The position numbers were made by a program, and so were the translations under genes. Shown here piece after piece: positions 788-49,921 of a DNA stretch of 64,000 bases; the first letter of the stretch is position 1, and the number at the start of each line of letters is the position of its first letter. The notes beneath the pieces were generated by a model, which did not search any database, was not told where the DNA came from, and was given only the letters and a program-made list of their open reading frames with translations. This DNA comes from a virus. Its lineage: Duplodnaviria > Caudoviricetes. The DNA lies in IMG/VR virus record IMGVR_UViG_3300011008_002750, positions 32,001 to 96,000 of that record. The stretch is one strand, 5' to 3'.

Positions 788-814
788 AAATAGAAAAACT
801 AAACAAGGTTGTTT

Positions 815-1981
815 ATGAAAACTAATAAAACGATTTTATGTCTTGATTGGAGTAATATCCTTTTTAGATCATTATTCATAAATCAACTATATGGCACTAA
901 AATGACATATGACAATATTGAAGATTGTCAATCATTCATTTATAAATTTGCCACAGATGTTTGTTCAATTATTAATATTTTTAAACCAAATAACGTGATT
1001 TTGTTGACAGATTCTCAGCATGCATGGCGTAAGGATGTTTTGCCTGGAGAGGACGGATACAAATCAAACCGTCAAAAACAAGAAGGGGTTAATTGGGATA
1101 ATATTTTTAAATGTTCAGATGATCTGAAGCAACTTTTCAAAAATATAGGTTGTCATGTAGCTGAATATGAGCACAGCGAAGCAGATGATATGGCAGCTTT
1201 ATGTAAAGAAGTGATATTTGAAAAATATCATGACTATAATTTAATTATTGTTTCTGCTGATGCAGATTTGCGCCAATTGATTGATTTTGATCCATTGACA
1301 AATCAATATTGTGCAGTTTACAATACAATAGTTAAAGGTAAAACAGGTAAAAGATTCCTTTATATTACTCAAGAAATGCAAGATTGGCTTGGCAAAGAAG
1401 ATCAAGTTGATATTTTCTTCAGTAATGTAGATGAATCAAAGCAATATATTAAAGATATTATTACACAAAATGTTAAAATTGGAATTGAAATAGAAAATCC
1501 AAATGAAGTTCTTCTTCATAAGATTTTCTGTGGAGATGATGGTGATTGTGTCCCAAGTTTCTATAGTTGGATCCATAATGGCAAATCTGTCAGAATAACT
1601 CCGGCTAAAGAAAGAAAAATTCGTGAAACTCTTGGAATCAAAACTATTGCAGATTTGATTCAAGCAAAGGATAATTTGAAACCGTTAATTGAATCAGTTG
1701 CTAAAAAAGATGTTAATGATATTAATATTAATGAGAGACTACAACGTCAACGCACTTTAGTAGAATTAAATTCAAGTTTGTTCCCTAAAGATATTCAATC
1801 ATATAAAGATACTATTGATTATATGATTCAATCTACAGGAGAATCTATATTTGCTAATATGAAAGCTGCAAATATTCTTAAAGGAACTGAATATGAAAAT
1901 TCTAATAAACCCAAAGCTTTGACTGCAAGTGTATTCAAAGATATGGAAAAATATGGATTGACACCTATTCCAATTTTCTAA
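815..1981 (+). CDS. rnh: T4-like RNase H / 5'-3' flap exonuclease
   Basis: LDWSN, WRK..YKSNR, EADD, SADADLRQL, GDDGDCVP motifs of the FEN/T4 RNase H family; no TAG. Confidence 0.85.
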   Translation: MKTNKTILCLDWSNILFRSLFINQLYGTKMTYDNIEDCQSFIYKFATDVCSIINIFKPNNVILLTDSQHAWRKDVLPGEDGYKSNRQKQEGVNWDNIFKCSDDLKQLFKNIGCHVAEYEHSEADDMAALCKEVIFEKYHDYNLIIVSADADLRQLIDFDPLTNQYCAVYNTIVKGKTGKRFLYITQEMQDWLGKEDQVDIFFSNVDESKQYIKDIITQNVKIGIEIENPNEVLLHKIFCGDDGDCVPSFYSWIHNGKSVRITPAKERKIRETLGIKTIADLIQAKDNLKPLIESVAKKDVNDININERLQRQRTLVELNSSLFPKDIQSYKDTIDYMIQSTGESIFANMKAANILKGTEYENSNKPKALTASVFKDMEKYGLTPIPIF

Positions 1982-2026: not shown

Positions 2027-3097
2027 ATGAGTAATAAAAATAATTTTGATGAATCTGAATTAGCAGCTTATGCACAATCTGTTGAAGGCGTATAGACTCC
2101 GGAAATGACAATGCCAGCTGAAGATGCTCCAAAAGTAGAAGAGAAAAAAGAAGAAAAGAAACCTACTGTTGAACAGCAACGCGATTTAGTTGGTATGCAA
2201 ATGAAAGCACAAGCTAAAACTGCAACTGAAGCACATGCTGAACGCGAAGAAGAAATTCGTAAAGAATCAGAAGAACGTGGTATTGGTAATGCAGTTGTTC
2301 CAGTTGAATCTCTTCCTTCTAAAGGTTTATTCTATCCAGTTGGAACTCGTATTTATATTCGTTCTGCATCTCTTGGTGATATTAAACGTTGGAGTGCAAT
2401 GAATGAGGACGACGTTCAAGATGTTATGGAAAAAATGGAAGCAATTTTTGAAAGTTGCTGCGTAGTTAATTTTGGTCCAGACAGTATGAAGCGTGCAAGA
2501 TATAAAGATATTCTTGATTTAGATCGTCTTTATATTCTATTTGCAATTCATGATTGGACATTCCCATCTGGCAAAAATGATGTCAAACTTAAGATTACTG
2601 AAAAAGATGACATTGTTATGAAGAAAGAAAACGTTAAATTTATAGAGTTCCCAGAGAAATTGATGAAATTCTATAATGAGCAAAAACGTTGTTTCTCATT
2701 CCCAGTAGACAAAACATCTCTTTTCAAAGATACTGATGGAAAAATGGATATTTATATGCCAACAATCGGAGTTAGTGATTGGTTGAAAGATTATATGATT
2801 GCTGCTAATCAGCGTCGTGATAATATTGATCAAGATTTCTTATCATATGCATCATTATTGATTCCTGATTGGAGAAATCTCAATGTTGATTATTATTATG
2901 ATTTAGTTGAGAAAACTTCAGATTGGGGCACATATGAATGGACATTGATTTCTAAAGTTCGTGATATTATTGTTAATGCAGCTGGAAATCCAACTATAAC
3001 ATATATCGATAATGGAGGCGCTGAACGAGAGGTTCCGCTTTACTTTCGCAACGGACTCAAATCACTCTTCCAAGTAGAACTCAAGATCGACCTTTGA
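2027..3097 (+). CDS. baseplate hub/tail assembly protein, T4 gp26-like
   Basis: LPSKGLFYP..IYIR and DRLYILF motifs; ATG 2027 with one TAG at codon 23; ends CTT-TGA. Confidence 0.65.
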
Positions 3098-3098
3098 T

Positions 3099-3542
3099 TT
3101 GCCTGAAAAAACTAATAATGAGCTATTTAAAGAAATTTTTGAGGAAGTTAAATTATATTCAACAACATATAGTGTTCTAAAAGGATTTGGAATTAATTAT
3201 AATTCAACTGGTTATGAAAAATCTTTAATTAGAAGTGCTGCTGAAATCTTGAATCCATGTACAGGATTCAACCATACCCTCAAACAATTATTAAATATGT
3301 ATTATTATTTAGTAAAAGAAGCCCATTTTTCAATATCTGATTTAGATAAATGCGATTGGTTCTTTGCTTATAATCTTTATGAGATGTTTGCTGAAGAAGT
3401 TGAAAAGAAAAACAAACAGCAAGAAGAGGAGAACAAACGTCAAGAACAAGAAATGGCTAATTATCAACAAATGCAAGATTACCAATCTAGGATGATGGGA
3501 AATATGAGTCAAGGAATGCCACAAATGCCATCATTTAATTAA
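3099..3542 (+). CDS. gp51-like hub assembly catalyst region; possibly made as a +1 frameshift extension of the gp26-like ORF
   Basis: YYYLVKEAHFSISDLDKCDWF..YNLY..EVEKKNKQQ resembles gp51; +1 frame relative to upstream ORF; start uncertain (TTG 3099, ATG 3012 or ATG 3297). Confidence 0.55.
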   Translation: MPEKTNNELFKEIFEEVKLYSTTYSVLKGFGINYNSTGYEKSLIRSAAEILNPCTGFNHTLKQLLNMYYYLVKEAHFSISDLDKCDWFFAYNLYEMFAEEVEKKNKQQEEENKRQEQEMANYQQMQDYQSRMMGNMSQGMPQMPSFN

Positions 3543-3640: not shown

Positions 3641-4066
3641 ATGAGTAAAGAAAAAGAACAAGAAGTAAAAGCTGAAGATCTCAATCTTGAATTGCCATCT
3701 AGTATTTTAACTAAGGAATTTGAAGATGATGACAGTGATATGCCACTTCCAGAGACAGCTGAGTATAAAGATCCAAAACAAGCAGATGATGACAGAGTAT
3801 TATTGCCTACACCTAAATTTTATACATTATTTAATGAATGTCTAGGAAAAATGCCATATGCGTCTGTTTTAAAGAATTCAAACAATGATCAAATTAAATT
3901 AGTTGATTTGATTAAATTTGTAGAAGTAAAAGCAGGTGGATTGACAGTTAAAGAAATGAATACTATTATTTCATTTGTAGCTGGATGTCCATTAGAATTT
4001 GTAAGGCCATTTATGGAAATTGTAGAATCTGCTGAACGTCAAAAAGAGCTTTGGGTTTTGAAGTAA
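3641..4066 (+). CDS. hypothetical protein
   Basis: 141-aa ORF with acidic N-terminus; AAAC-N18-TAAAAT upstream. Confidence 0.75.
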   Translation: MSKEKEQEVKAEDLNLELPSSILTKEFEDDDSDMPLPETAEYKDPKQADDDRVLLPTPKFYTLFNECLGKMPYASVLKNSNNDQIKLVDLIKFVEVKAGGLTVKEMNTIISFVAGCPLEFVRPFMEIVESAERQKELWVLK

Positions 4067-4080
4067 AAATAAAGGAGGAA

Positions 4081-5523
4081 TTTTTAATATTTTATATATA
4101 ATTATAATGTACTTTTATTTAAGTTTTAAAATTTAAATTATTTCAAAAATTTCTGGAATAAATATAAAAAGAAAATATTTTTTAAGAGTTGAGAGGCTTA
4201 AAAACTATTTTAGAATTATAGTTTATAAATTATAAAGCATTTTAATGTTTTATTATTCAGCCTCTCAATTTAAGAATAATAATCATTTTAATGCTTTTAT
4301 TTTATTTATATGAAATTAGTTGAACAACATATAATTAAATCTAATAATGTCCTTTATAAAGAACTTGATAATCTTTGTTTTCTTTCAAAGAATTTATATA
4401 ATCAAGCTCTCTATAGAATTCGTCAATAGTTTTTTAAAGATAAAACATTCAAAAATTATTATGATTTGAATAGAGAACTTCATGATGAAAACTAGATTGA
4501 TTATAGATCACTACCAGCAAACACTTCTCAAGAAACATTAAAATTAGTCAACTAGAATTATAGTTCATTTTTCAAAAGTTTATAGAAACAAATTAACGGA
4601 GTTAAAATTCCAGGTTATCTAGACAAAACTAAAGGAAGACAGATAGTTGTTTATAATTATTCAACAATATATGGCAATAAAGAATCTGGAATTATAAAAC
4701 TTCCTAAATCAAATATACAATTTAGAACAAAATAGAAGAGCAACTATTAAAGAACTATTAAAAGACAACAAAAGATATATGTCTATTGATTTAGGAATAG
4801 ATAACCTGGCCAGCTGTTCTTCAAATGTTTCTAAATCATTTATAATCAATGGAAAACCTGTTAAATCTATTAACTAGTTTTATAATAAAAAGAAAGCAAG
4901 TCTTCAATCTGAATTAAAAATTAAAAATAAGAAAAAATTAAGTAAGCAACTATAGAATTTAACTTTAAAAAGAAACAATAAAATTAAAGATTATTTTCAT
5001 AAAGCTTCCAGATATATTGTTAATCAATTAGTTAACCAATCTATCAATACTTTAATTATAGGAAAGAATGATGGATGGAAACAAGAAACAAATATCGGAA
5101 ATGTCAATAATCAAAATTTTGTTAATATTCCTCATCAAATGTTTATAAACTAGTTGAAATATAAATGCTAGTTAGAAGGAATAAATGTTATTGAACAAGA
5201 AGAAAGCTACACTAGCAAAGTTAGTTTCTTTGATAATGATTTTATTCCAACATATCAAGTTAATGATAAACTATTTAAATCTTCAGGAAAAAGAATCAAA
5301 AGAGGTTTATATAAAACTACTAAAGGATAGTTAATAAATGCTGATATAAATGGTTCATTAAACATAATGAGGAAACATTTAAATGAAGTTTGTGATGAGA
5401 TTATATCTCCAGCAAATAGAGGGTTAGTGATGAACCCTGTTAAAATTTAGTTTTAATAAATAAAAACAAAAAGTGTAAATAATTTATACACTATTTACAC
5501 TTTTATATTGTTTTTAATATCAT
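4081..5523 (+). mobile_element. IS200/IS605-family (IS1341-like, tnpB-only) element, copy 1; left end apparently lost, left boundary approximate
   Basis: Highly similar to 12740..14235; right-end hairpin AAAAGTGTAAATA/TATTTACACTTTT; homology ends at TCAT (5520-5523); no tnpA. Confidence 0.8.
4310..5456 (+). pseudogene. tnpB: TnpB RNA-guided nuclease with frameshifting deletion near 4740
   Basis: With TAG=Q: MKLVEQH..SKNLYNQA, SIDLG, IIGKNDGWKQ, QEESYTSK, NADINGSLNI; N-part stops at TAA 4748, C-part is in the +1 frame. Confidence 0.85.
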
Positions 5524-20313: not shown

Positions 20314-20946
20314 TTAAAGAATTGCTTCGTCATAATAGTCACACCAGAATGTCATATTAAATCCATTCCAAATTGCGCTATTGTCATAGTTCAATTGAGG
20401 AGATGGAACTTGAGAAGTTGGGAATAAATTGTAGCAAATCCATTGGTGGATAGGTTTTCCTTCTTTATCATGCAACATAATAGTTATTGCTTTAGCTGCA
20501 TAATTCTTTTTAATATGCATACGACCTGTTAATGGATCATATGTCAAATCACTCCAACGACGTAAGAATTTATAAGTATAGTTATCATTAGTTCCATCAT
20601 CGTTACGTTTGATATTCAATTCAAATGTCATTTGAAGTTCTAGGTGAGTTTGAGATGGAGCAGAACCGGCAAACCCACGTTCAGCTTGTTTATATTTTTG
20701 GTTTACTGAACCAACACCACGTTGAGTATCAAGACCAGTAACTTGTCTTAAACCTTCAAGAACGATTTTAACATCGTCATCTCCATATCCATATTCTAAC
20801 ATGCCATTTGGAAGATCTGATGGTAAAATTTGAGCAGTCCATAAATTTGTATAGATTGGCTCATGTAATTCCATTGATCTTTTAGATGATGTAAAGTGAC
20901 CCCATCTGTCGAGTCCTTCGCTATTAATATTTTCCCATTGTGCCAT
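20314..20946 (-). CDS. gp19: tail tube protein, gp19-like
   Basis: TFELN..LRRW..YDPLTG..KKNYA..LHDKEG..NLFPTS..LNYD..FNMTFWCDYY. Confidence 0.75.
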   Translation of the reverse strand: MAQWENINSEGLDRWGHFTSSKRSMELHEPIYTNLWTAQILPSDLPNGMLEYGYGDDDVKIVLEGLRQVTGLDTQRGVGSVNQKYKQAERGFAGSAPSQTHLELQMTFELNIKRNDDGTNDNYTYKFLRRWSDLTYDPLTGRMHIKKNYAAKAITIMLHDKEGKPIHQWICYNLFPTSQVPSPQLNYDNSAIWNGFNMTFWCDYYDEAIL

Positions 20947-30531: not shown

Positions 30532-33500
30532 ATGAAAATTAAAATTAAAAATAATAAGAATATAAAAGAATTAAAAGAAAGCCAATTGTTAGAATTGGAT
30601 AATCCAGCTATACAAGAAAATAATAAATCGACTGCTGCTAATTTATATAAAGCGCTATGCGCAAAGCAATTTATATAGGATCGCAAAAAGGAGGATGTTC
30701 TTATTAATGTTGTAGTTCCAGATAAATTATATACAAATTTAAATATCTTAAAGTCCCCAATAGATATATAGAATTTAATGACATCTGCTATTACCAATAA
30801 ATCTGAAAAAACTAGGGATTTTGAAAAATGGGGGATGGTTGATCCAATTGCTACATATAATTCAGCTGAAGATTGTTGTGCAACTGCATTTAAAAATTTT
30901 AATTCTAAAATTCAATTAGCCAAATCCAAAGATGAGCAACAACTGAATAAAGAAAATGTTGCATCAGAAGGCATTTTAATTAAAAATACTAATGTATTAA
31001 ATGAAATTACCACTGCAGCCGCAACTGCTGCTGGAGTTCAAAGTGGATTAGCTATTTCTCATGGAATTAATCTAATTAATTGTTTTGGAGCGGGATTAGT
31101 TAGTACTGTTGGTGCAACTGTTACTGTATGGGGTTCTTTATTTGCTGGATTATGTGTCGGCACACATGAGATATCAAAATATGCCGGCTATAAATTAACA
31201 GATGCAACTCCAAATGGAACAAAACAAGATGGAAAAGAAATCACAGATCCAAGTAAAGATATTTTATCTAATATAACTAAAAGTACTACATTAGATTTTA
31301 ATAATGTATCTCCAGCAATAGAAACATATATTAATGATATTATGCAATCTATTAGAGATTTATTATAGGGATTGTCTCCAAATATGTTAGAGGACTTTAA
31401 TAAAATTTCTAAATATATTACAAATTATATGGCAGTATCATCAGATAAAGCTGAAAATTTTATAAAGGAAAACTCTGAAGCATTAAAAGAATAGGAAAAG
31501 ATAAGGCATGATAAAGAAATTATTGATTTAAATAAACAAAAAACTGCATTAGAAAAACAATCAAATTTTATAACAAAAATGTTAGAAGCAGCTAGTGCTG
31601 AATAGCAAATACGAAAAGATGAATTTGTAAAAATTAACGCAATTATTAATTATTATAAAACTGCTAATTCAAAAGACTATGAAAAAAAGAGAATGTTGGA
31701 AGATGCATTAGAAGAAGGTGGCATTAAAAAAGTTATTGTAACATATACTACAAGTATCGAGAAATCACCTAAAAAGACGCAAGAAACACCTCAACTTGCA
31801 TCTGCTGCATATTTAGGAAATAATAGTAATAGTTTAAATGAAGCTGCAGAAGAATTAGCAGTAGGAAATAAACCAGATTTACCATTAGATACAATATATA
31901 AAGGGCTATACACAGATCTTAAAAGCAATTTTGATGCATTATGCGCTAAATTTGATAAAAAGCAAATGACAAATTTGGAAGAAACCAAAGAAAATATGAA
32001 GCTCCTTATTGACGAAGCGGATAAAACTATTAAAGATCGAATAGAAAAAATAACAAAATCTAATTAGACCTCATCTGGAAATGAATCTGGATTAACTAAA
32101 GCTGCTGTACAATTTTTAGCTGGACATCCGTTAGAAGCTGATAATTTATTAGAAATTTGGAGTCGTCATTTAGCAGATCTTAAATAGCGAATGAATGCAA
32201 GAATTAAAATAATGACTGATACTGGAAATTCAACCAGAACACTTGGATGGACTATTTCATTTTTACAAAATGTTATGCCTGATCTTATATCAAGGCTGCT
32301 CACATATCGTTATGGGTATTAGGTATTAGCTAAAAAAGGAATGTATACATATAATACAGCCAAAATTAAAAAGGATATGGAGTTGTATAATGATACAAGT
32401 ACTGGCCTTAAAACTATATATGAAGAGAGTCCAAGGGCTAAATTAATTTTCATTTTAAATAATTATAGTGGAGATTATACTAATACTGGTAAAAGTTGTA
32501 TATCTCCAGATGAAAATGGTAAATTTACTTTAAATGAAAATTATTTAGCATACGGTTCATTATTAGCTAAAAAACTTAAACCTAGACTATCTGATGAAAA
32601 TATTATTAAAATGGGAGTAGACTTAGCAAATATTAATAAAACTATAGAAGGCGCTGAATATTTATATAATGGCTTATATGGGGCACTTAAAAGATATCCA
32701 GCAATGTCGCTTTTTCCACAAAGTGATAATTTTGAAATAGAATTTGATAATTTAATTAATACATTTAAAATGAATGATGAAATTAAAGCATTAAAAGATA
32801 CTATATTAACGGCATATAATAAAATTAAAAATATAGGTAATAATGTATTATCCAACTTAAATGTAGAAAATGCTAAAAATATTGCATAGTCATTTTATAT
32901 TATTGCTAATAATAATCCAATGGTTATTTATAACATATATATGAAAAACGAAGGTGATATTACAAAATTATTAACAGAATTTAAAGCAGCAGAAAAAAAT
33001 GATAATAAAACTTTAAATAAAATTAGGCAAGATATACATAAAATATTTTCTAATATTGATTTTTCAAATCTTAATGAAACCGATGAAAACATATATATAT
33101 CAACAATTAAAAATATGTTTGAATCAAAATATAATAATGACTATTATTCATATATTATTTCATTTGCAGATAGAACAAAATTAGGAATACCACATTTATT
33201 TTCAAAAAATGGTATTAAACAATCATGTGCAATATTTCCAGTCTTAGTAGAGCTGGCTTCATCCGGTATATTATCATATGTAGAAGATGAAGATAAATCA
33301 GAAAAAGTTGATACCACTAAAATTGATGAATTAATTAAAGAAATTAAAGATATCCCGTGTGCAAAACTTGCTGCATATAATACATTATCATCTATTGATG
33401 CATCAAATAATCCTACTTTTGAAGAATGTAAAAAGATTTTAATATATAATCAAAATGAATATATAAAATCAACTATTAAAGAATATAATAAAATATCTAG

Positions 33501-47260: not shown

Positions 47261-49921
47261 TTAAAATCTCCTTCCACTTAACATATTTCCAAATCCTTGA
47301 TGGAAACCATTATTGTTATATAAACTTTGATCTATATTTCCTTGCATTACTGCACCATAACCATTTTGTTTATGTCGTAGATTTCTGAAATTAGCACCAG
47401 CTGTTTTATAGAATGCATCAAACTATTCATCTGTTAACTATGCTTCTTTTTCAACTAATATATTCAGCATCTAACCAATTTTATATAGTTTTTCTGTCTA
47501 TGGGGCTTTTTCTATCCATTCATTTAAGAATTTAATAAATTGACGTGATTCAGGTGCAATAGAAATAAATAAGCATGTTATTGCAATATCATCATGACAT
47601 AGTGATCCTTCGTAAGAATTTTTCTTTTTATTCTTTCCAAATTGATTCAACTCATTAATAGAACTGAGATTAACATCTTGATCATGTTGTCTGACTAATA
47701 TTTGTCTATTATGAATCATCTTAGCACCTAATTCACAGTAATAATTCTTTCCATGTTCTCCGCCTGTTGTTCTGAATCCATATTGAAGTTTCATTTTTTG
47801 AATTGGCTATCCTGGTTTCTAAATCCCTTTAACTGTTTTGAGAATTAATGCATCATAATAAGTAGGATGTTGTTTGAATTTATTAATCCAGTTATTTCCA
47901 TTAAAATTCATTTCTATCAAAATTCTGACATTATCTATTTCACCATAACCAGTTTTCAATATTTGAAATGCAATATATTTAGCTGCTTCTGCACACTGTG
48001 TCTCATCTTTAAAATTATCGATATATAAACCGACTTGTTTATATTGGACACAATCTTTAATAGATATAGGGCCTCCATTTCTGTTTACATTAATTCTATT
48101 AGGACTAAGTGGTTCTATTTCAAATATATTAATAATATTATAATCTGAATCTTCTTTTTCAACAGATGCTTGCTCAATTCCCTGTGCAGTGTCAACAACA
48201 AACAAGAATGATTTTCTATATAGTGTTTCATAATCCATATATGTTGGATTGAAATCTGGTGCCCATAATATATTATTAGATATTTCTAATGGGACATGAT
48301 TGAATTCTCTATGGACAAAATCTTGTTTAATTCTATTCATTAAGAGAATTGATTTTGGAGAAATTAATCTTGTACTGTCAGATTCAAATGATAATTTATA
48401 TTCTCGTTCAAACAAATCATCATCCATCATTTTCTTTCTCTCTCTTTCTAACCATTTTTCATCATGTCCTGGAACTTGCCACCAGTCAACACGGTTAAGA
48501 ACCCAATCACTAGTTTTTTTAATTGCACTATCAACAATTTCATAGAATTTTCCAGTTGTTCCACGAGGTGTTGACGAAACAATAATCTATGAGTTTACAA
48601 GGCTGGACATTGTAGGAATAACAGATGCCCAGTATTCTGAAATAACGCCTTGAGGAATAAGAGCACACTCATCAATATATAATAAATGAATAGAATCACC
48701 AGTTGCAGGAGTTTTAGAAGCTGCTGCACATTTAATGCATGTTCCATTTTCTAATTTAATTCTATTAGCAGAAATATTAAGTATACCCGGTTTTAAGAAG
48801 AATGGAAGTCCCTCTAAAAATTCTTTAACTTTTTCTACAATTCCAGAAGCAGTAGATTCTTTATTTGCACAAATAAAAATATTTCTATCATTATGAAATA
48901 TTGCATACCACATTATAAATGCGCCAATAGTGGTAGTATTATGAGATAAAATACCATTAGAATAATAACTATGATCTGATTCTTCAACAGATATATCATA
49001 CATATATTGAAGTTGATGAGTATTTACTACTGATTTAACTTTTGTCCAGCCATTTTCAGTTAATATATAATGATTTTCAGTTAAATCTTTAATAAAAATC
49101 CACTATTCAATAAAATTAATAGATGCATAAATTCTATGATTATCTGCACCATCTAGAGTTAATCCATTTTCTAATTCAAGATGGTATATTTCAAAAGGTT
49201 TAGTTCTAAAAAGCTGTGTAGCGTGATTATACTAATCTTTTGATTTAATTTCAAATTGGACATCTTGTTTTTCTATAAGTTTTTCTTGATGATTTTTACC
49301 AAATTTTATAGATTCTAATTTATAAATTATATTTGTTAATTTATTTTTAAATAATTTAGTATCATTTAATTTATATGCATTATAAATTATTTTATCTAAT
49401 AAAGATGGAAATTTAATATTATTAAAATATAATTCATATAATTTAATTTTTCCATATTCTTTAGTATCTATAATGGAATTTCCAGATAGGCATTTTGAAG
49501 TTTGTCTACTCTAAAGTAAACATACCATTGGGTTGTCTGGCATAATAACCTCTTCATCTGGGTCCCAATGTTCACTAGATAATGTTTTTAAATTCTCTTT
49601 TTGAAAATCATATAATTTAACAGTTGTTCTTCCTTTCTTATTCAAAAATTTTGCATAATTTTCAACAAACCATATACAATCATTAGAGCATTTGTCCATT
49701 ATTTTAAGTTCTTCATCAGTATATTCAAATATAACACCGGCATCACGCCAATCTGGACTACCGTGAAAGAATGGAGTTGTATCAGCTTTACCACCATTTA
49801 GAACATTTGTAGTTATTTCTTTGATTTTTTCTGTAGAATAAACTTTAGATTTCTTTTCTAATTCGGCTTGCTTGTCTAATACATTACTATGTATGTCAAA
49901 TTGTTGTCGAACCTTTGGCAT
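47261..49921 (-). CDS. gp17: terminase large subunit gp17 with intein
   Basis: LYDFQ, SRQTSK|TT Walker A, LLYIDE Walker B, SSTPRG, VDTAQG..DY, IEMN, HDD; one frame with TAG=Q. Confidence 0.92.
48938..49492 (-). mobile_element. 185-aa cis mini-intein in terminase Walker A
   Basis: CLSGNS start, ADNH block B, MYDISV..HSYYSNGILSHN|T end; no endonuclease motifs. Confidence 0.9.

Follow-up and report, generated by a model that had tools for sequence, protein, structure and literature searches.

In Escherichia coli, the gene prfB for release factor 2 (RF2) is autoregulated by a +1 frameshift at the sequence CUU_UGA, and UUU_CGN is a +1 shift motif of the Amalgaviridae. A frameshift in a tail assembly chaperone gene is described for the gpG/gpGT pair of phage lambda (Levin, Hendrix and Casjens 1993; Xu, Hendrix and Duda 2004; both as cited in PMC5009743), and in influenza A virus PA-X is made by a known +1 shift at the sequence UCC_UUU_CGU (Firth et al. 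2012, as cited in PMC5009743). In phage T4, the proteins gp26 and gp51 are listed in a review as "hub assembly chaperones" (PMC3004832, Table 2). Here we analyze a gp26-like gene and the reading frame that follows it in a stretch of AT-rich phage DNA of 64,000 nucleotides, which corresponds to positions 32,001 to 96,000 of the IMG/VR record IMGVR_UViG_3300011008_002750 and which we refer to as the window. As judged from the comparison of sequences, it is reasonably probable that this one gene gives rise to a short and a long tail or baseplate-hub assembly chaperone through a +1 slip of the ribosome at UUU_CGC (3044-3049).

Two reading frames in a conserved +1 arrangement

The gp26-like gene is located at 2027-3097 and, like all features of the locus, lies on the plus strand. 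It encodes 356 residues, with a TAG at codon 23 read as glutamine, and its predicted product, the short form, ends in ...YFRNGLKSLFQVELKIDL-TGA. A preliminary description of the locus had noted that this open reading frame (ORF) ends in GAC CTT TGA and that a second ORF follows in the +1 frame, and the sequence bears this out: the 3' end reads ATC GAC CTT TGA (3086-3097), after which the +1 frame continues with TTT GAT TTG CCT GAA and remains open over the rest of the extension (3098-3542), up to a TAA at 3540-3542. It is also correct that no ATG follows for 66 codons after the frame-0 stop, the next one in this frame being ATG 3297. Further candidate starts in the +1 frame are TTG 3099, TTG 3249 and, within the overlap of the two ORFs, an ATG at 3012-3014 that could serve as the own start of a 176-aa protein, provided that a TAG at 3075 is read as sense. 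This ATG lies 11 codons 5' of the sequence TTT_CGC (3044-3049), which is in frame with the gp26-like ORF at codon 340 (F340), 17 codons before the stop, and which is the shift site that we propose. From there, the overlap in the +1 frame (3045-3097) reads FATDSNHSSK-Q(TAG 3075)-NSRSTF and would form a hydrophilic linker of the long product. The extension itself can be divided into four parts, namely a variable one of about 50 residues, a core (about 3249-3455) that is conserved and helical, a charged coiled region, and a C-terminal tail rich in Met and Pro. Its core is detected by a hidden Markov model (HMM) with 51-93 bits in most lineages, and an AlphaFold2 (AF2) model of the extension predicts helices at residues 79-157 with a predicted local distance difference test (pLDDT) score of 80-95.

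To compare the arrangement across phages, the locus was gathered from 15 GenBank phages and from 65 IMG/VR or metagenome contigs, and the proteins were clustered at 70% identity into 28 clusters, which derive from Lak megaphages, other huge phages and phages of Flavobacterium, Tenacibaculum, Bacillus, Listeria, Streptococcus and Alishewanella. The loci L073 (a short contig on which the match stops short of a family-like C-terminus), L075 (which runs off its contig) and L080/L081 were left out of the statistics. Relative to the gp26-like gene, the conserved downstream domain is in the +1 frame in all 28 clusters, as had been noted for the window. The phase is kept even where the two ORFs do not overlap and it would otherwise be free to vary, as in HSE3 and SP-15 with annotated gaps of 22 nt and 79 nt, respectively. 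A +1 fusion of both ORFs in the style of a tail assembly chaperone, as suggested in the preliminary description, is well supported by this comparison.

What the comparison does not support is the place at which that description let the shift occur. It had regarded CTT TGA (3092-3097), the stop of the short product, as a prfB-type site, at which the tRNA-Leu would move to UUU while RF2 is slow, so that the ratio of the two products would sense RF2. Indeed, the hexamer is present in the window, CTT followed by a stop is shared by five of the six close relatives and turns up again in L023, L047, L005 and L072, and the TTT TAA of the Lak phages could also slip. However, the last sense codon is of at least 12 kinds among the relatives (CTT, TTA, CTA, TTC, TTT, CTC, GAA, GAG, GTT, GTG, AGC and GAT), most of those used elsewhere (CTA, TTC, CTC, GAA, GAG, GTT, GTG, AGC, GAT) cannot re-pair at +1, and the 75%-identical L041 ends in TTA TAA. 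The commonest stop of the gp26-like gene among the relatives is TAA, which most members use and which gives no RF2 specificity, and no Shine-Dalgarno-like run that could act as a stimulator is seen 5' of CTT TGA, where the sequence reads CTCAAGATCGAC, in agreement with what had been reported before. A shift at the stop would also leave unexplained why at least 12-20 codons of the +1 frame are open 5' of it. With the hexamer not kept, the stops mostly TAA and the stimulator lacking, the idea that the locus senses RF2 is not supported, and we regard a prfB-type shift at CUU_UGA as quite improbable.

An in-frame TTT_C where the +1 frame opens

An in-frame TTT_C is present 6-26 codons 5' of the stop in 27 of the 28 clusters, and the TTT-CGC at 3044, which had been listed before only as an alternative, is this conserved site. 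In the Lak-like and Bacteroidota-phage groups, TTT_C belongs to an invariant Phe (F340 in the window), and in the Bacillus/Streptococcus phage group it is located within an FF motif that is only a few codons away from the stop. At the site, Phe is encoded by TTT in 27 of 27 clusters, compared with about half of the Phe codons gene-wide (summed log10 P = -9). The codon that follows has C as its first base in every case but does not specify a constant amino acid (CGN in 13 clusters, CAA in 7, CCC in 5, CAC in 1 and CTT in 1), and where it specifies Arg, it is CGN in 13 of 13 cases and never AGA or AGG (log10 P = -3.3). In the window, CGC makes up 27 of 444 Arg codons (6%). Furthermore, no stop interrupts the +1 frame between the site and the frame-0 stop in any of the 27 clusters with TTT_C, and in at least nine lineages this frame is closed one or two codons 5' of the site. 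The joint probability of the open +1 frame is 1e-10 when derived from each gene's own density of +1 stops and 1e-7.4 under a resampling that is restricted to synonymous codons and leaves the protein unchanged; these probabilities, like the two given above, treat the clusters as independent though the clusters share ancestry, and they overstate the case but are clear in direction.

In the window's 43 ORFs of at least 150 residues, the in-frame TTT_C is depleted (41 observed vs 68 expected), and the TTT share is 0.56 before a codon that starts with C, as against 0.79 overall (Fisher P = 2e-6). This depletion fits an avoidance of a shift-prone codon pair, but ordinary codon-pair bias could also account for it. 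In the same ORFs, TTC_C occurs more often than expected (32 times against 17.6) and TTC_G less often (16 times against 44).

As an alternative to any frameshift, the downstream protein could be initiated independently, at ATG 3012 (176 aa, with TAG 3075 as Gln) or at TTG 3099 (147 aa), in which case the conserved phase would be the relic of an ancient overlap, as overlapping genes keep their phase by descent. ATG 3012 does exist, close relatives and Lak phages have a +1-frame ATG nearby, and MaF61, HSE3 and L005 have an ATG near the start of the conserved core, where GenBank annotates small separate ORFs. The position of the ATG is not conserved, though, and in L023 and L047 it is absent, with just a GTG beside the site; likewise, TTG 3099 is gone in an 80%-identical relative. 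In L005, L008, L064 and L072, there is no ATG, GTG or TTG at all between the upstream +1 stop and the conserved extension core, and in small members the extension core starts inside the overlap. Independent initiation would, moreover, account neither for the nucleotide invariance of TTT_C and the opening of the +1 frame exactly at this site nor for the phase being kept across the gaps of HSE3 and SP-15, and we consider it unlikely.

A frame change may also be made in a direction other than +1. In Pseudomonas phage PA5oct (L013), the annotated "baseplate hub" gene contains a canonical -1 slippery heptamer, T_TTT_TTC, which has the correct phase, coincides with the matching FF motif and is located five codons from the stop. 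An unannotated -1 ORF of 78 codons (L013 3151-3378) follows and contains no ATG, GTG or TTG. The extension-core HMM does not detect this ORF, the homology of which rests on its position and on reading by eye. It is likely an unannotated -1 frameshift product, and a heptamer that is combined with the lack of a start codon speaks once more against independent initiation.

The frame could finally change in the RNA through transcriptional slippage, or the whole layout could be a pseudogene or an assembly artefact. Runs of six T at the site, where polymerases can slip, are found in SP-15, LIS04 and PA5oct, but a TTT alone, as in the window and the majority of its relatives, does not give a polymerase enough length to slip. 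More than 60 independent assemblies and isolate genomes together show the same two-frame layout, which argues against an artefact or a pseudogene, and explanations of this kind are in our view hardly to be expected.

Relationship of the two products to T4 gp26 and gp51

The preliminary description had called the upstream ORF gp26-like, and this assignment is supported: the upstream protein appears to be a distant homologue of T4 gp26 in the family PF12322, although its membership in this family holds only via intermediates. A Pfam scan of the window protein itself gave no match, and Pfam and PHROG scans of both window proteins yielded nothing informative directly; the gp26-like protein matches phrog_36717, which is also matched by pT24 gp132. 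It shares 44% identity with a Prevotella Lak megaphage protein, and more distant kin come from several uncultured phages of 460-735 kb as well as from Flavobacterium phage MaF61 and Tenacibaculum phage pT24. Two relatives in the gp26-like alignment match PF12322 (T4_baseplate) with an E-value of 1.6e-12, and L008, L009, L011 and L013 match phrog_150, the family of both T4 gp26 and gp51. T4 gp26 is co-linear over its full length, including the N-terminal LPS-G-x-Y motif (alignment A2), and it shares the C-terminal endpoint with the window protein (GLKEFFELL vs GLKSLFQVELKIDL). Two CxxC pairs, which represent a zinc ribbon, are near-invariant in the distant members and in T4, and are replaced in the window/Lak clade (KL...KITEKDD, IDN-GGAERE); the absence of these cysteines in the Lak-like clade is, on the alignment, a derived loss within the family.

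The AF2 model of the gp26-like protein has a pLDDT of 74.5, with values mostly above 80 in the core (residues 90-340) and a disordered tail (343-356), and F340 with its TTT_CGC falls at the end of the predicted folded domain. A Foldseek search of this model against the PDB gave nothing at E <= 0.001. In an exhaustive structure alignment against 48,161 PDB representatives, just five chains reached Z >= 2, and the top three were the HK97 tail assembly chaperone 2ob9 (Z 3.4, root-mean-square deviation 9.3 over 90 residues), 3fgx (Z 3.1) and YqbN of Bacillus subtilis (3klu, Z 2.7), which we take to be the XkdN-type chaperone of the skin prophage. These scores are weak and far below a secure Z, but they point to a tail assembly chaperone.

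Within T4, gp26 consists of PF12322 alone, and gp51 contains the full PF12322 domain (residues 1-201, E 3.9e-52) with an additional tail of 48 residues, which makes the two proteins paralogues. Both belong to phrog_150, and gp51 orthologues combine PF12322 with a second family, PF28602. The preliminary description had called the downstream ORF gp51-like, a name for which the gene order of T4 gives no argument. In T4 (L016, NC_000866 112000-124000), gene 26 is located at 3803-4429 on the minus strand and gene 51 at 4480-5229 on the plus strand, separated by 50 bp, so that the two genes are transcribed divergently and their synteny was rejected as a basis for the name. The T4 annotation also lists an internal-start product 26', which comprises the C-terminal 95 residues.

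What stands, weakly, is the resemblance of the proteins. Four of 23 extensions match phrog_634, "baseplate hub assembly catalyst", with E-values of 8e-4 to 0.015 at profile positions 58-120, and residues 147-246 of T4 gp51 correspond to positions 2-103 of the same profile (E 1.2e-23). The window's own extension has no phrog_634 match in the PHROG scan, and one extension matches phrog_9001, "tail assembly chaperone", with an E-value of 9e-6. When the extension family was aligned with the gp51 family by hhalign, a single match resulted, which places the extension core onto gp51 residues 193-247 in the expected register (E 0.041, 1.3% probability); the extension profile against the single T4 gp51 sequence gave 0.1% probability. 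In a MAFFT alignment of the conceptual transframe fusions with the T4 proteins, gp51 is co-linear with the fusion and has F200-K201 at the junction, and gp26 ends with the frame-0 tail, in that the frame-0 GLKSLF... pairs with the GLKEFFELL of gp26. T4 gp51 looks like an in-frame equivalent of the shifted product, and most simply the single gene would make, as its short and its long product, the counterparts of T4 gp26 and gp51, respectively. As gp51 is devoid of the gp26-type tail, a shift at F340 is favoured over a shift at the stop, since the product of the latter would carry this tail.

Most extensions terminate in a short motif of the form hydrophobic-x-[IM]-P-K-[FI] (NIPKI, MPKF, TPKI), for example at L001 3680-3695 and L005 3520-3539. 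This terminal motif is often preceded by copies of itself, and the window version is degenerate (MPQMPSFN). The motif suggests a docking peptide at the C-terminus.

Proposed mechanism and points that weigh against it

That the shift occurs, how efficient it is and what the products bind are matters that we infer from the anatomy, the homologies and the comparative signatures. In the proposed mechanism, standard decoding of 2027-3097 would yield the 356-aa gp26-like protein, and a fraction of the ribosomes would shift by +1 at UUU_CGC (3044-3049). The peptidyl-tRNA-Phe with the anticodon GAA would leave its G:U wobble pairing on UUU (3044-3046) and re-pair in Watson-Crick geometry with UUC (3045-3047), upon which decoding would resume at GCA 3048, pass TAG 3075 as Gln and stop at the TAA at 3540. 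The resulting long form of about 504 residues would consist of the gp26-type domain (residues 1-340), the hydrophilic linker, a variable region and the helical extension with a conserved helix pair, a long charged helix and the Met/Pro-rich tail. The predicted junction peptide is ...EVPLYF/ATDSNHSSKQNSR..., and not the IDLDLPEK that was put forward with the shift at CTT TGA. In this mechanism, the long form would correspond to T4 gp51 and the short one to T4 gp26, and their ratio would be set by the efficiency of the shift. If the two forms work like lambda gpG and gpGT, the tape measure or hub would be bound by their common domain, and the extension would recruit another tail part. A possible partner of the extension, by analogy to lambda gpGT/gpV, is a tail tube candidate that is encoded at 20317-20946 on the minus strand and that matches phrog_45, "tail tube", with an E-value of 2.4e-9 and PF06841 with an E-value of 7.3e-5, the latter below its cut-off. 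This candidate is a 210-aa ORF without TAG and, in contrast to the situation in small myophages, lies at a large distance from the gp26-like gene.

A number of observations weigh against a +1 shift at UUU_CGC, in addition to the shared ancestry of the clusters, by which the calculated probabilities are overstated. With RNAalifold, no conserved structure was found 3' of the site in ten relatives, the fold of the window 3' of the site is no better than that of shuffled sequence (z = +1.1), and no conserved Shine-Dalgarno-like element near the TTT_C site is present among the relatives. The A-site codon is not uniformly rare, as CAA is a common codon, and the efficiency of the shift may be low. 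LIS04 is an exception to the motif, with TTT_TTT_AGT and no C after TTT. A divergent member of 251 residues in L080/L081 (Ga0214166_1001229, 1453-2208) has neither the conserved Phe with TTT_C nor a +1 extension, and may represent a "gp26-only" lineage; a convergent gene follows directly after it. Members of the window clade, like the Lak phages, carry a +1-frame ATG at a distance of 6-14 codons 5' of the site, and in the window genome a separately initiated 176-aa protein from ATG 3012 may be made in place of, or together with, the shifted product. In the overlap, the substitutions between the window and relatives of 75-97% identity leave the frame-0 protein unchanged and alter the +1 peptide, which is not conserved as amino acids between close relatives. 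The link of the extension to the gp51 tail is weak, given the 1.3% probability in hhalign, and the extension-core HMM applied directly to the gp51 tail gave 0 bits, no more than shuffled sequences did. Finally, no in-frame fused homologues were found among longer proteins in a search of 5.8 billion proteins, which is a weak negative, as long proteins crowd out relatives in this search.

Genetic code, gene neighbourhood and annotation

The record that holds the window is a 121-kb fragment with an estimated completeness of about 24%. IMG/VR classes this record as "provirus", a label that may be an artefact; its content is that of a megaphage of the Lak type in which TAG is recoded. That TAG serves as a sense codon in the window phage is clear, because reading it as Gln joins fragments into ORFs of 1055-1431 residues that carry 10-23 in-frame TAGs each (ORF calls with TAG as sense vs without). 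In agreement with this assignment, the TAG at codon 23 of the gp26-like gene aligns with a Gln that is not encoded by TAG in an 80%-identical orthologue. The large terminase (47261-49921 on the minus strand, 886 residues), which matches phrog_2 and phrog_9 with an E-value of 2e-30, is readable only with ten TAGs as sense. The codon usage of the gp26-like gene (2027-3097) differs from that of its neighbours: 8 of its 13 Phe codons are TTC and 13 of its 15 Arg codons are CGN, and in the window as a whole TTT has a share of 79% and AGA is the main Arg codon.

In HSE3 and SP-15 of Bacillus and in LIS04 of Listeria, the gene order is tail sheath, tail tube, gp26-like gene, a small +1 ORF or gap, and tape measure. 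The same order is shown by Ab1 of Acinetobacter and Slickus01 of Alishewanella, followed by a long ORF that is not annotated as tape measure, and on the IMG/VR contig L008 a coiled-coil, tape-measure-like ORF comes next after the gp26-like gene, so that a position between tube and tape measure is likely in these three as well. Because it sits between tube and tape measure in HSE3, SP-15 and LIS04, the gp26-like gene of these simpler myophages occupies the slot of the tail assembly chaperone. In the window, the gene is not located between tube and tape measure, and its neighbours are an exonuclease gene and a small conserved ORF. The former (809-1981, plus strand, without TAG) encodes a FEN/T4 RNase H-type 5'-3' exonuclease (PF02739, E 1e-14) and lies directly 5' of the gp26-like gene, so that a replication gene stands beside a tail-assembly gene. 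The small ORF (3641-4066, plus strand) lies 3' of the extension and encodes 141 residues that match no family. Lak phages conserve this ORF (MSK.K...DDDSDMP.PET), and its place beside the chaperone gene is retained across about 44% protein identity (L001-L003).

The complete genomes of Lak-A1, pT24, MaF61, LR756500 and HSE3 contain one gp26-like gene each, and T4 contains two. The two ORFs of the locus are currently annotated as "baseplate hub" and "hypothetical protein", and the long product is found in none of the records examined. No description of a gp26/gp51 frameshift was found in the searchable full-text literature, which is no proof of novelty.

Comparison with known systems

If the shift takes place as proposed, it would link T4 gp26/gp51 to the well-understood chaperone logic of gpG/gpGT and offer a testable idea about the role of the "catalytic" gp51. 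It would also add a phage case to the UUU_C +1 motif, which has hitherto been established mainly in eukaryotic RNA viruses, and an in-frame TTT_C with a +1 frame that opens at the site could serve as a signature in the search for further cases. In code-15 phages, the long product needs TAG to be read as Gln and would hence be completed only once the suppressor system of the phage is active.

Compared with E. coli prfB, the locus shares the hexamer CTT TGA and the +1 direction, but it lacks the upstream Shine-Dalgarno stimulator, its hexamer is not conserved, its stops are mostly TAA and the conserved signal is located 17 codons upstream. The resemblance to PA-X of influenza virus lies in the site, as in both cases UUU is followed by a codon with an initial C (often CGN), tRNA-Phe would move from UUU to UUC and no stimulatory structure is evident, and HSE3 and GXN1 carry TTC_TTT_CGT_C. 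However, PA-X is made by a eukaryotic RNA virus on 80S ribosomes, and the A-site codon of the phages may also be CAA, CCC, CAC or CTT, so that it is not always a slow one.

With lambda gpG/gpGT, the family shares the location of the gene between tail tube and tape measure in simple relatives, a shift direction that differs by lineage as in the G/GT type (+1 here, -1 in PA5oct), and a weak fold resemblance to HK97 and YqbN chaperones. It differs from the lambda pair in that it belongs to PF12322, with proteins of 250-356 residues in which the zinc ribbon is lost or kept, in that the shift would be +1 on UUU_C and not -1 on a heptamer, and in that the Lak-like gene adjoins neither tube nor tape measure. 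Phage G, for which a frameshifted chaperone has been annotated (PMC12484599), is absent from the matches to the family queries, and its chaperone probably belongs to another family.

In T4, the counterpart of the frame-0 product is gp26, with which it can be aligned over the full length including the C-terminal GLK-x-hydrophobic-F tail, and the transframe product is co-linear with gp51 in having the PF12322 domain and an extra C-terminal tail. Unlike the window phage, T4 encodes the two proteins by two divergent paralogous genes and without a frameshift; identity to the T4 proteins is only 10-20%, the extension of the window has about three times the length of the gp51 tail, and the zinc cysteines are lost in the Lak-like clade. 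It is conceivable, and in our estimate nearly as probable as not, that T4 gp26 and gp51 represent the duplicated, "unzipped" form of an ancestral chaperone with one gene and two products, and that Lak and many other large myophages would make the gp51-type long form from their single gp26-type gene by a UUU_C +1 shift, with the minimal motif known from PA-X but on bacterial ribosomes and without a stimulator. Taken against these known systems, the locus is likely a variant of the tail-assembly-chaperone frameshift, with a +1 shift at TTT_CGC 3044 and no basis for the RF2 sensing that is known from prfB.

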